DNA from: Candidatus Methylomirabilales bacterium
GTDB lineage: Bacteria; Methylomirabilota; Methylomirabilia; Methylomirabilales; CSP1-5
DNA: 64,000 bases
Direction: 5' to 3'
Assembly (NCBI GenBank): GCA_046758505.1
Contig: JBHIAH010000001.1
Coordinates: 94,677 to 158,676, forward strand
In this document: in pieces, positions 48,347 through 51,614 of the stretch
Layout of the letters: every line of letters begins with the position of its first letter
Position numbering within the stretch: position 1 is the stretch's first letter
Notes under the pieces: model-generated
Told to the model about the DNA's origin: nothing
Seen by the model: the letters and a program-made list of their open reading frames with translations, nothing else
The model's database searches: none
Made by a program: the position numbers and the translations under genes

Positions 48347-49318
48347 GTGAAGGCCTTGGTCACGGGCGCGACCGGGTTCATCGGCAGCCACCTCGTGGAG
48401 TACCTGTTGCAGCGGGGAGACGATGTCACCTGTCTCGCCCGGAGCCGAAGCCGCCTCCGGTGGCTGAAAGGTTTACAGGTCAGGGTCGTCGAGGGAGACT
48501 GCACGGATCCTGCCCTGGGGGGGCGCCTTGTTGAGGACTTTGACTGGGTCTTTCATCTGGCTGGGCTCACCAAGACCCTGGAGCGCAACGAGTATTACCG
48601 GGTTAACGGGAAGGGGACGGCCAACCTGGGCACGATCCTGGCCCAGAAGAGACGACCACCCCGGCTGGTGTACCTGAGCAGTCTGGCAGCGGCCGGGCCC
48701 AGCACGGACGGACATCCGTTGCGGGAATCTGACCCCCCCCAGCCGGTAAGTCATTACGGCCGGAGCAAGCTGGAGGGGGAGAACGGGCTGACACGACTCG
48801 GGGCCGGGATTCCCTGGACCATTGTCCGGGCACCGGTGATTTATGGTCCCCGGGACCGCGACCTCTTGGTCTTCTTTCAGCTGGCCAAACGGCGGGTGGC
48901 GTTTCGCCTGGGGAGGAGACAGGCCTTCAGCCTCTGTTATGTGGAGGACTTGGTACGCGGCCTGCATTTGGCAGCCGAGCGGGGAGGGACCGGAGAGATA
49001 TACTACCTCGCAGAGGCCTCTCCCCGGTCCTGGGACGAGATATCGGAGGCCATTGGGGCGGCCGTGGGGGTCCGGCCAATGACGGTTCCCCTCCCTCGTC
49101 CCCTCCTGGCCGGCGCCGCGTGGGTTTCGGAGGGGATGGCGCGCCTCACGGGAATTCGACCGCTCCTCAACCGAGACAAGGCCCGGGAAATGCAGCAGCA
49201 ATACTGGATATGCAATCCGGGCAAGGCCGCACGGGATTTAGGCTTCGCCACCTCCATCCCCCTACGCACGGGAACGGCACGGGTGGCGAAGTGGTATGAG
49301 CGTCACGGCTGGCTCTAA
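48347..49318 (+). CDS. NAD-dependent epimerase/dehydratase (extended SDR); candidate ceramide reductase
   Basis: TGATGFIG, HLAG, SSLAA, YGRSK; first gene of the operon with spt and GNAT. Confidence 0.85.
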   Translation: MKALVTGATGFIGSHLVEYLLQRGDDVTCLARSRSRLRWLKGLQVRVVEGDCTDPALGGRLVEDFDWVFHLAGLTKTLERNEYYRVNGKGTANLGTILAQKRRPPRLVYLSSLAAAGPSTDGHPLRESDPPQPVSHYGRSKLEGENGLTRLGAGIPWTIVRAPVIYGPRDRDLLVFFQLAKRRVAFRLGRRQAFSLCYVEDLVRGLHLAAERGGTGEIYYLAEASPRSWDEISEAIGAAVGVRPMTVPLPRPLLAGAAWVSEGMARLTGIRPLLNRDKAREMQQQYWICNPGKAARDLGFATSIPLRTGTARVAKWYERHGWL

Positions 49319-49329
49319 AGGAGGAGGGC

Positions 49330-50508
49330 ATGGACATTTTCGATAAATGTTACACCTATACCGACGCGAAGAAGGTCATGGCGGCCGGCTTCTATCGGTA
49401 CTTCCAGGAGATCCGATCGGCCCAAGACCCGGAGGTCGTCGTGGATGGGCGACGGATGATCATGGTGGGATCCAACAATTACCTGGGACTGACATCTCAC
49501 CCGCGTATCCGGGAGGCGGCGATCCGCGCGGTCGAAAAATACGGCACCGGATGCGCCGGGTCGCGGTTCCTCAACGGAACCCTGGATCTCCACCACGAGG
49601 TAGAAGCCCGGCTGGCCAAGTTCAAGAAGAAAGAGGCAGCCCTCCTCTTTTCCGCAGGGTATCAGACCAACCTCGGAGTCATTGCTGCCCTCGTCGGCAA
49701 GGATGACGTGGTCATCATCGACCGGTGGAACCACGCCAGCATCATCGACGGCTGCCGCCTTGCCTTTGGCCAGACCCTGAAGTATCGGCATAACGACATG
49801 GAAGACCTCGAGCGAATCCTGGCCTCTCAGGCAGATAAAGGAAAGCTGCTTGTGGTGGATGGGGTCTTCAGCATGGAGGGAGATATTGCCAAGCTCCCGG
49901 AAATCGTGCGACTTGCCCGAAAATATGGAGCCCGAATCATGGTGGATGACGCCCACGCCACCGGCGTGCTCGGCAAGGATGGGAGGGGGACCGCAGAACA
50001 CTTCGGCCTCGAGAACGAAGTGGACATCGTCATGGGGACGTGCAGTAAGGCACTGGCCTCGCTGGGGGGCTTCATCGCATCGAGCCATGACGTGATCCAC
50101 TACGTCAAGCACAACGCCCGGTCAATGATGTTCAGTGCCTCCCTCCCGCCCGCCTGCGTGGCCACCATCCGGGCCGCCCTGGAAGTCATCGAGGAAGAGC
50201 CCGAACGGCGGGCGCAACTGTGGAAGAATGCCGAACGCGTCCGGGAGGGCCTTCAGGAGATGGGTTTCGACACCGGCCTCAGTGAAACGCCGGTCATCCC
50301 CGTGGTCTTTGGTGATGAGCAGCAGGCCTTCCAAATGGGGCGCGGACTCTATGAGCAGGCGATTTTCGCCAATGTGAGTGTGAGCCCTGCGGTTCCCGAG
50401 GGAAGGGGTCTTATCCGGACGAGCTATATGGCCACCCATACGGACGCCCACATCGACCGGATCCTGGAGGCCTTTCGGATTGCCGGGAGGGATCTCGGAG
50501 TGATCTGA
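49330..50508 (+). CDS. spt: Serine palmitoyltransferase (AONS/class II aminotransferase family)
   Basis: MDIFDKC N-terminus, GSNNYLGL, GTGCAGSRFLNGT, HASIIDG, DDAH, GTCSKALAS, RTSYMATH; flanked by SDR and GNAT genes. Confidence 0.78.
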   Translation: MDIFDKCYTYTDAKKVMAAGFYRYFQEIRSAQDPEVVVDGRRMIMVGSNNYLGLTSHPRIREAAIRAVEKYGTGCAGSRFLNGTLDLHHEVEARLAKFKKKEAALLFSAGYQTNLGVIAALVGKDDVVIIDRWNHASIIDGCRLAFGQTLKYRHNDMEDLERILASQADKGKLLVVDGVFSMEGDIAKLPEIVRLARKYGARIMVDDAHATGVLGKDGRGTAEHFGLENEVDIVMGTCSKALASLGGFIASSHDVIHYVKHNARSMMFSASLPPACVATIRAALEVIEEEPERRAQLWKNAERVREGLQEMGFDTGLSETPVIPVVFGDEQQAFQMGRGLYEQAIFANVSVSPAVPEGRGLIRTSYMATHTDAHIDRILEAFRIAGRDLGVI

Positions 50509-50510
50509 CC

Positions 50511-51614
50511 GTGGAGGTCTTCCCCGTCGTCACCGATCGAGATCTCCACGCCTTCCTCCACCTACCATGGCGTATCTACCGGGGCGATCCCCACTGGGTT
50601 CCCCCCCTCCTCCTCGAACAGCGCCAACTCCTTACGCGTCAACACCCCTTTTTTGAAAAAGCCGAGATCCGCCTGTTCCTGGCCAGGGAAGGGGGGGAGG
50701 TCGTCGGCCGTATCGCCGCCATTGTGGACCACCACTTCCTTGAATCGCATCACGAGCCGGTCGCTTTCTTCGGGTTTTTCGAATGCCTCAACGACAGGTC
50801 CGCTACGCGGGAGCTTTTCGGCGCGGTCCAGGAATTCCTGCGCGGGAAAGGCATGCAGGCAATCCGCGGACCGGTCAACCCCTCCATGCACGATCCCTGC
50901 GGCCTCTTGATCGACGGCTTCGAGTCCGCACCCGTCTTCCTGATGCCCTATAACCCTCCCACCTACTCGGATCTCCTGGAGGAAGTCGGTTGCCGAAAGG
51001 TGAAGGACCTCCTGGCGTACACTCTCCGGATCTGGACCGACCCACCCCCCAAGGTGCTCCGATCGGCCGAGGAGGCCCGGCGAAGGGGTATTCAAGTTCG
51101 GCAAATAGACTTGAAGCGCCTGGGAGACGAAGTCCGAATCATCTGCGAACTCTACAATACCGCCTGGCAGAACAACTGGGGTTTCACCCCGATGACCCAG
51201 GCAGAAGCCGAATGGATGGCAAAAAATTTGAGACTCCTGATCGTGCCTTCCCTCACCCTGATCGCCGAGGCGGAAGGGAATCCTATCGGCTTTCTGATGC
51301 TCCTGCCCGATTACAACCAGGCGGTGCGACATCTCAACGGTCGTCTGGGACCCCTCGGCTTCCTCAAGTTCCTCTGGTACCGTCGTCGGATCCGCGACGT
51401 CCGCCTCCTCCTCCTGGGCATGCGACCCGCGTACCGAGGCAAGGGAGTGGATTCACTCCTCAACCTCACCGCCTTTCAGGCCCTCAAGCAAAAAGGCTAT
51501 ATCCAGGCGGAGATCTCTTGGATCCTGGAGGACAACTGGGTCGTCCTTCGGATGGCGGAACGTCTCGGCGGGGCCCTCTACAAACGATACCGGATCTACG
51601 AACTGCCTGTATGA
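50511..51614 (+). CDS. Tandem GNAT acyltransferase; candidate bacterial ceramide synthase
   Basis: WVPPL, GRIAA, FFGFFEC, MPYNPP, NWGF, SWILEDN, YKRYRIY, typical of the bCerS/YghO-like family. Confidence 0.78.
   Translation: MEVFPVVTDRDLHAFLHLPWRIYRGDPHWVPPLLLEQRQLLTRQHPFFEKAEIRLFLAREGGEVVGRIAAIVDHHFLESHHEPVAFFGFFECLNDRSATRELFGAVQEFLRGKGMQAIRGPVNPSMHDPCGLLIDGFESAPVFLMPYNPPTYSDLLEEVGCRKVKDLLAYTLRIWTDPPPKVLRSAEEARRRGIQVRQIDLKRLGDEVRIICELYNTAWQNNWGFTPMTQAEAEWMAKNLRLLIVPSLTLIAEAEGNPIGFLMLLPDYNQAVRHLNGRLGPLGFLKFLWYRRRIRDVRLLLLGMRPAYRGKGVDSLLNLTAFQALKQKGYIQAEISWILEDNWVVLRMAERLGGALYKRYRIYELPV

Follow-up and report, generated by a model that had tools for sequence, protein, structure and literature searches.

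In a 64,000-nucleotide stretch of DNA from a Candidatus Methylomirabilales bacterium (the window, part of a 2.99-Mb genome assembly in 149 contigs that is 96.8% complete), we analyzed three consecutive open reading frames on the forward strand that probably form an operon for building the backbone of dihydroceramide. They encode an extended short-chain dehydrogenase/reductase (SDR), an alpha-oxoamine synthase (AONS) resembling serine palmitoyltransferase (Spt) and a tandem GNAT protein, in that order:

48347-49318, + strand: cerR-like extended SDR, candidate 3-keto reductase of the sphingoid backbone (323 aa, GTG start)
49319-49329, + strand: intergenic gap of 11 nt, read directly, with the AGGAGG ribosome-binding site of the Spt-like gene
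49330-50508, + strand: Spt-like alpha-oxoamine synthase of the Bacteroidota/delta-proteobacterial subgroup (392 aa, ATG start)
50511-51614, + strand: bCerS/YghO-family tandem-GNAT N-acyltransferase (367 aa, GTG start)

An earlier note on this DNA had described three tightly spaced genes with gaps of 11 and 2 nt, and the open reading frame listing confirmed their coordinates, strand and spacing. The AGGAGG Shine-Dalgarno sequence in the first gap lies just 5' of the ATG of the Spt-like gene, and the GNAT gene has a GGAG 10 nt ahead of its GTG start. All three frames show the third-codon-position GC (GC3) bias of genuine genes in a window of about 62% GC. The trio is flanked upstream by a divergent M28 peptidase gene and downstream by a convergent PAP2 gene. 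Across the locus, a promoter/terminator scan gave about as many matches as chance predicts (1 versus an expected 1.0, and 5 versus an expected 4.2).

Sphingolipids were long thought to be rare in bacteria, and a three-enzyme bacterial route to them has been defined only recently. In the rhodobacterial pathway of Caulobacter crescentus, ceramide synthesis reportedly involves Spt (CC_1162), CerR (CC_1164) and bCerS (CC_1154) together with AcpR and AasR, a scheme said to come from Stankeviciute and colleagues in 2022. A tblastn search with the window GNAT against annotated plasmid records returned 46 records, and two of the matches led to loci linked to this pathway. In Sphingomonas parapaucimobilis (NZ_CP155753.1) the genes encode, in order, an NAD(P)H-binding protein, an acyl carrier protein (ACP), a class I/II aminotransferase, an ATP-binding protein, LptF, LptG, a desaturase and an N-acetyltransferase. 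In Escherichia coli (NZ_AP022222.1, 775700-794809; locus L009), yghO stands beside genes for a fatty acyl-AMP ligase (aasR-like), an epimerase/dehydratase, an ACP, Spt and LptG/LptF, and PGAP names the Spt product 'spt serine palmitoyltransferase'. Both loci match the Caulobacter layout from CC_1165 to CC_1154 described in excerpts of PMC11324152. Passages of PMC9386255 list 'aca' (CC_1154; yghO, ECD_02850) and 'epi' (CC_1164; ECD_02852) as required for dihydroceramide synthesis and already put in print the orthology of the E. coli genes to those of Caulobacter. Of 5426 complete E. coli genomes, 4549 contain yghO DNA.

All three window proteins are homologues, over nearly their full length and at 28-41% identity, of the E. 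coli and Sphingomonas counterparts encoded in these published types of dihydroceramide locus, which upholds the earlier suggestion that the trio matches the bacterial ceramide set; the Caulobacter-type pathway draws on the same three enzyme families. By pairwise BLASTP, the Spt-like protein is 40% identical to Sphingomonas Spt (E 7e-99), and the GNAT is 33% identical to E. coli YghO from end to end over 370 aa (E 2e-78) and to the N-acetyltransferase of the Sphingomonas locus (33%, E 2e-69). The SDR aligns over its full length with the Sphingomonas protein in the cerR position (30% identity, E 7e-30) and with the E. coli locus epimerase, 'epi' (28%, E 8e-28). Orthology of the SDR was examined genome-wide in the reverse direction, the forward direction being pairwise only: searched against the whole assembly, the Sphingomonas reductase found the window SDR best, at 81 bits over the full length, and the next match reached 52.9 bits over the N-terminal 108 residues only.

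The SDR matches Pfam Epimerase (PF01370, E 2e-35) and has a GxxGxxG motif at residues 7-13 and a YxxxK motif at 137-141, both of which align with those of the Sphingomonas protein, in keeping with its first description as an extended SDR. Its top NCBIfam match is the hopanoid-associated epimerase HpnA, an identity that we rejected at 140 bits against a cut-off of 367.65. A sub-threshold HpnA match is likewise the best that NCBIfam offers for five of five SDRs linked to sphingolipid loci (Sphingomonas, E. coli, Rubrobacter, Streptomyces and Aureispira), so the match reflects a missing CerR model and not a hopanoid role.

Pfam recognizes Acetyltransf_1 in the GNAT protein on residues 211-353 only. 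An AlphaFold2 model built from 40 homologues (predicted local distance difference test score, pLDDT, 95.0; predicted template modelling score, pTM, 0.90) had tandem-repeat GNATs as its best Foldseek matches in the PDB (7q3a MAB_4324, 5kf1, 2wpw and MshD 2c27/1ozp; TMq 0.55-0.63), among them the glucosamine N-acetyltransferase of C. acetobutylicum and the clavulanate tandem GNAT. The predicted model and fold search thus bear out the tandem architecture that had been proposed. Other resources were less informative: NCBIfam had no model matching this protein, or YghO, at useful significance; a sequence search against solved structures gave nothing useful (best E 0.046); and the ESM Atlas returned generic names only, both for the GNAT and for the product of the PAP2 gene. 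The family has one copy in the window genome, and its closest named homologues, at 74-79% identity, come from metagenome-assembled genomes labelled 'Candidatus Methylomirabilales bacterium'.

The second gene product matches Pfam Aminotran_1_2 (PF00155, E 2e-62), and its top NCBIfam family is NF047600, SerpalmtaseCFB (serine palmitoyltransferase, CFB type), at 548.1 bits. Further NCBIfam scores were 453 bits for the BioF/Kbl subfamily and 429.5 for Kbl against a cut-off of 460; none passed. Among solved structures the Spt of S. multivorum (3A2B) ranked first at 434 bits, followed by Thermus BioF/Kbl (327), Sphingomonas Spt (307-315), Kbl (about 282), cysteate acyltransferases (249-282) and E. 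coli BioF (218). All 16 active-site residues of the S. multivorum enzyme, taken from an excerpt of PMC10196870, are kept in the window protein. His138, Ser185, Asp210, His213, Thr241 and Lys244 (S. multivorum numbering) are among those conserved and are common to BioF and Kbl; the only part of the active site that sets Spt apart from BioF and Kbl is the Gly80-Ser81/Leu84-Asn85 loop. At the Asn85 position, four of four known Spt proteins and none of eight BioF/Kbl proteins have Asn. The window protein has this Spt-type substrate loop (G-S-R-x-L/A-N) as G77-S78, L81 and N82. The Spt-type motifs claimed earlier therefore separate the groups only in part: the whole active-site set is kept, with the Spt-only Asn85 in it, but its catalytic and pyridoxal phosphate (PLP)-binding residues occur in BioF and Kbl as well.

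We placed this protein in an AONS tree of 29 rows, built in IQ-TREE under LG+C20+F+G4 by posterior mean site frequency (PMSF). The rows were the window protein; the second AONS gene of the same genome, on contig C105; four known Spt proteins (Sphingomonas, E. coli, Parabacteroides and B. finegoldii); four more BioF and three Kbl proteins, from bioA/bioD or tdh contexts or from E. coli; and Spt-like proteins from trios and fusions, from one Priestia megaterium plasmid and from the phylum (ten). Each of the three known Spt proteins that were scanned (Sphingomonas, E. coli and Parabacteroides; B. finegoldii lay outside that scan) passes an NCBIfam Spt cut-off. In the resulting tree, the window protein belongs to a clade of 19 rows (ultrafast bootstrap, UFBoot, 95; SH-like approximate likelihood ratio test, SH-aLRT, 96) that holds all four known Spt proteins, none of the five BioF and none of the three Kbl. 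The C105 paralogue groups with BioF (96/88) and, scoring 459.6, exceeds the equivalog cut-off of 426.45 for that family, so that the bioF of this genome lies on a separate contig. Approximately unbiased (AU) tests, in which the groups were named after the tree had been seen, rejected both a clade of the window group with only BioF (p 0.00018) and one with only Kbl (p 0.00011). The earlier note had offered phylogeny as the check on its reading, a grouping with BioF or Kbl speaking against it; by clade placement and these rejections, the enzyme groups with known Spt. The gene in the tree from the Bacillota plasmid (NZ_CP137804.1, locus L067) encodes a protein 52% identical to that of the window; neither a GNAT nor an SDR gene adjoins it, but genes for an acyltransferase and a methyltransferase lie nearby.

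The three families recur together well beyond this genome. Using a 10-sequence alignment, we collected the 80 best GNAT loci from named genomes, which span at least a dozen phyla, and called a neighbour where a tblastn match (E<=1e-10, 150 or more residues aligned) lay no more than 5 kb from the GNAT. An Spt-like gene was present in 53 of the 80, an SDR gene in 44 and both in 42; these counts are lower bounds, several loci being cut by contig ends. Annotated trios occur in Rubrobacter radiotolerans, Streptomyces sp. NBC_01001 and Aureispira anguillae. Eight longer GNAT-family matches were scanned for further domains, and three proved to be Spt-like::GNAT fusions (P0129, P0247 and the truncated P0218), with NF047600 as the best NCBIfam match of the N-terminal domain in every case. 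The remainder were two PilZ::GNAT proteins (P0137 and P0150), which hint at c-di-GMP control in some lineages, one 784-aa GNAT-GNAT duplication (P0121) and two proteins without a Pfam match. Because the same families flank the GNAT in 42 of the 80 named loci and Spt::GNAT fusions occur, the grouping reflects more than chance.

Of 151 genomes sampled from the phylum, 51 have the GNAT and 27 have a CFB-like Spt (E<=1e-120); these totals include the window genome and one unpublished genome (G046), leaving 50 and 26 of 150 when the latter is omitted. All ten further sampled genomes of the same genus have both the GNAT and the Spt-like gene. From 54 match places we chose 20 loci on longer contigs across genera, leaving out G046. 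Ten of these show collinear SDR-Spt-GNAT, including all four from the same genus, and one (L058) has a different, five-gene layout. In two (L048 and L051) the only Spt-like match is distant, at 35% identity, and eight have no Spt-like match, among them L057 with a distant SDR and L054 with an adjacent PAP2 match.

Lone GNAT copies, with no Spt-like gene in the fetched flanks, were seen at L044, L049, L052, L055 and L056, and in Akkermansia muciniphila (L142) and Chlorobium sp. (L133). One genome (G124) has one GNAT copy in a trio and one lone copy. Some family members may act on other acyl acceptors; alternatively, the partner genes may just lie elsewhere in the genome.

Two other genes in the window have candidate roles in the same class of lipid:

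51868-52743, - strand: PAP2_3/PAP2_C membrane protein (291 aa; Pfam), convergent with the trio, candidate ceramide phospho-head-group transferase
6017-8062, + strand: neutral/alkaline ceramidase homologue (681 aa; Pfam), outside the operon and 40 kb away

The PAP2 protein passes the cut-off of 27 bits for both PAP2_3 (77.3 bits) and PAP2_C (30.4 bits), the two Pfam families of PAP2 proteins resembling sphingomyelin or IPC synthase. Its match to the phosphoinositol dihydroceramide synthase model of Bacteroides, NF052609, is weak (22.1 bits against a cut-off of 480), and a sequence search against solved structures gave nothing useful. Family and neighbourhood suggest a role in head-group transfer. 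Of the 80 named loci, 8 have a PAP2 gene no more than 5 kb from the GNAT, and in 6 of the 10 collinear phylum loci one adjoins the trio. The ceramidase homologue matches Pfam Ceramidase_alk (E 1e-172) and its C-terminal domain (E 6e-53) and scores 536 bits with the NCBIfam neutral ceramidase model, below the cut-off of 1200; its N-terminus looks like a signal peptide by eye.

Further features were seen in and around the window. A crotonyl-CoA carboxylase/reductase gene (45665-47011, + strand; TIGR01751, 534.6 bits against a cut-off of 378.55) lies upstream and is kept upstream of the trio in three of the four same-genus loci. Two genes past the PAP2 gene are overlapping genes for a methyltransferase (DVU_1556-like, below cut-off) and a radical SAM protein (53673-55737, - strand). 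An islet of lower GC (35072-37736, + strand; 53-54% GC) encodes a PfkB kinase and an IPCT/DIPPS-like fusion of NTP-transferase and CDP-alcohol transferase, the latter scoring 279.5 bits with NF041135 against a cut-off of 580; this islet could conceivably be connected with inositol head groups. Searching for pmoA/amoA (PF02461) was uninformative, giving no match in the window genome and none in the control genomes either. Among the sequencing runs listed as carrying the stretch there was no RNA run; four DNA runs that carry it are labelled hydrothermal vent metagenome and may be the source sample.

On this evidence we consider it likely that the trio is one translationally coupled operon, cerR-like SDR to spt to bcerS-like GNAT, that builds the dihydroceramide backbone, and the organism would then make dihydroceramide. 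Gene order, homology, phylogenetic placement, conserved linkage and fusions are shown by our data; which substrates are used, in what order the enzymes act, which head group is added and that the lipid is produced at all are inferences. The Spt-like protein, a soluble PLP enzyme, would form 3-ketosphinganine by condensing a long-chain acyl thioester with L-serine. Acyl-CoA is the probable acyl donor, since the locus encodes neither a dedicated ACP nor a dedicated acyl-ACP synthetase. The tandem-GNAT enzyme would N-acylate the amine, and the extended SDR would reduce the 3-keto group with NAD(P)H; we take this sequence, acylation before reduction, from work on Caulobacter, and the two steps may occur the other way round. 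A phospho head group would probably be added to the ceramide by the convergent PAP2_3 protein, and the apparently exported ceramidase elsewhere in the window suggests turnover.

The locus differs from each characterized system in some respect. Unlike the Caulobacter-type pathway, it has no dedicated ACP or acyl-ACP synthetase, and no ACP or acyl-AMP ligase gene was found within the 64-kb window. This fits the Bacteroidota/delta subgroup of Spt, since PMC9386255, in the passages available, sets the AcpR-dependent rhodobacterial subgroup apart; by that division, by NCBIfam and by our tree, the window protein belongs to the former subgroup and not to the latter. The bcerS-like gene follows spt by 2 nt in one operon, whereas an excerpt of PMC11324152 states that cerS is always in a different operon. 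The closest characterized sequences to the window Spt are those of Bacteroidota (S. multivorum, PDB 3A2B/8GUH; Parabacteroides; Bacteroides), yet Parabacteroides Spt passes the NF047600 cut-off of 640 with 684 bits and the window protein, at 548, does not. In Bacteroidota the three genes are unclustered (PMC11334938, in part; the Parabacteroides and B. finegoldii loci), whereas in the window they are clustered. Compact trios of Actinomycetota and other phyla, and the 'Spt-like clade B' of Black Sea metagenome-assembled genomes, have the same three families adjacent, as here, although many of these other loci read Spt-GNAT-SDR and the window reads SDR-Spt-GNAT.

Several observations weigh against a dihydroceramide operon. 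The Spt-like protein falls below all three NCBIfam Spt cut-offs (NF047600, 548.1/640; NF047599, 420.2/500; NF047603, 349.8/670) and comes near the BioF cut-off, although it stays below it (421.8 against 426.45). The third AU test, with groups likewise named after the tree was seen, did not reject a placement of the window clade on the BioF+Kbl side, in which it would branch first among the Spt-like proteins (p 0.285). A bioB gene lies 6.6 kb downstream of the trio (58187-59344, + strand; TIGR00433, 404 bits against a cut-off of 225). The GNAT belongs to a very large family, of 8808 representative clusters at a threshold of E<=1e-3 (1609 at E<=1e-30), and not every member need be a ceramide synthase: 27 of the 80 named and 8 of the 20 phylum loci have no Spt-like match nearby. 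The likeness to the Caulobacter proteins is indirect, running through their E. coli and Sphingomonas counterparts. Last, the amino-acid specificity of the Spt-like enzyme is not readable from its sequence.

The same enzymes could also reach the same product in a eukaryote-like order, with the SDR reducing 3-ketosphinganine to sphinganine, the alternative role that the earlier note had given it, and the GNAT then N-acylating sphinganine. We regard this as a serious possibility, if not the order that we expect. Such a reduction-first route is proposed for Caulobacter CC_1164 and CC_1154 in excerpts of PMC11324152, and the window SDR is consistent with it: the Rossmann motif begins at residue 7, as it does in the Sphingomonas homologue, so the sequence ahead of it is too short for a cleavable signal peptide, as would suit an enzyme that stays in the cytoplasm and could act before acylation. 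Excerpts of PMC11087976 dispute this order, reporting that oxidised ceramide accumulates in a Caulobacter cerR deletion and that CerR is periplasmic, whereas Spt and bCerS are cytoplasmic. The first position of the SDR gene in the operon carries no weight either way.

If instead the AONS enzyme took an amino acid other than serine, for example alanine or glycine (for 1-deoxy bases) or cysteate (for sulfonolipid bases), the product would be sphingolipid-like and not a true ceramide. The missed Spt cut-offs are compatible with a non-serine substrate; Spt takes alanine and glycine poorly but measurably according to the abstract of PMC10196870, and the Black Sea study (PMC11334938, in part) terms such proteins only 'Spt-like' and reports 1-deoxyceramides. 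We nevertheless think a different amino acid unlikely, given that the 16 conserved residues, including Asn52, Gly80 and Ser81, are those around the serine external aldimine of S. multivorum Spt. Cysteate acyltransferase was rejected as an identity on this active-site match, on the lower structure scores of those enzymes (249-282 bits against 434 for Spt) and on Asn117, an Spt-side feature according to the paper on the cysteate enzyme, which aligns to an Asn in the window protein.

A small secondary metabolite, an N-acylated amino-ketone or amino-alcohol, is very unlikely to be the product of the trio in place of a membrane lipid. The trio of Streptomyces sp. NBC_01001 is followed by a gene for a condensation-domain protein, and the GNAT family is large and often found without Spt, both of which would suit such a product. 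The window, however, holds a membrane PAP2_3 neighbour and a ceramidase and no nonribosomal peptide synthetase or polyketide synthase genes, and retention of the GNAT and Spt-like genes in 10 of 10 sampled genomes of the genus is what would be expected of a core envelope trait. We dismiss as highly improbable, and reject as an identity, a housekeeping BioF or Kbl beside an unrelated SDR and GNAT, for which the BioF and Kbl scores close to cut-off and the downstream bioB could be cited, on the strength of the tree, the two AU rejections, the separate bioF on C105, the five genes on both strands between the trio and bioB, the lack of flanking tdh, bioA or bioD found at reference kbl and bioF loci, the linkage with GNAT and SDR kept across phyla and the Spt::GNAT fusions.

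A dihydroceramide operon thus remains our preferred reading, and a sister genus of the same order offers a comparison. Its locus L058 (G008:C1:2649642-2664745, locus 6989-12906), from a complete 2.75-Mb genome, has the rhodobacterial five-gene layout, with genes for an AMP-binding ligase, an epimerase, an ACP and an AONS in a row and the GNAT gene divergent. In the AONS tree its Spt is sister to that of E. coli (99/90). Since this layout occurs in the sister genus, one order holds two different sphingolipid modules. More tentatively, the genus of the window may build phosphosphingolipids with a minimal ACP-independent cerR-spt-bcerS plus PAP2_3 module, with turnover by an exported ceramidase, and the sister genus may use the rhodobacterial five-gene module; the order could then have acquired sphingolipid synthesis twice, and ceramides might be unrecognised biomarkers for NC10-related bacteria.

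The pathway and its frequent clustering are already published (PMC11087976, PMC11324152, PMC9386255 and PMC11334938, each cited from excerpts), and text of PMC11334938 reports that many phyla encode homologues of Spt together with bCerS and CerR, and that Spt-like proteins occur in 38 phyla. Our search for literature on sphingolipid in Methylomirabilis or ceramide in Methylomirabilota found nothing relevant; it did not cover the supplement of PMC11334938, which possibly lists the phylum. What the locus provides is a well-supported candidate for a ceramide-backbone operon in a new host for a known pathway, probably a member of the Methylomirabilales, and it leaves knowledge of the pathway itself unchanged. 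It is a clean example of the compact co-operonic form, with bcerS 2 nt behind spt and the two fused elsewhere, and this adjacency and these fusions bear on the published argument that cerS is always transcribed separately. The locus adds a probable Methylomirabilales lineage to the likely producers of sphingolipids, and if that is confirmed by lipidomics, ceramides could serve as extra biomarkers for the group.

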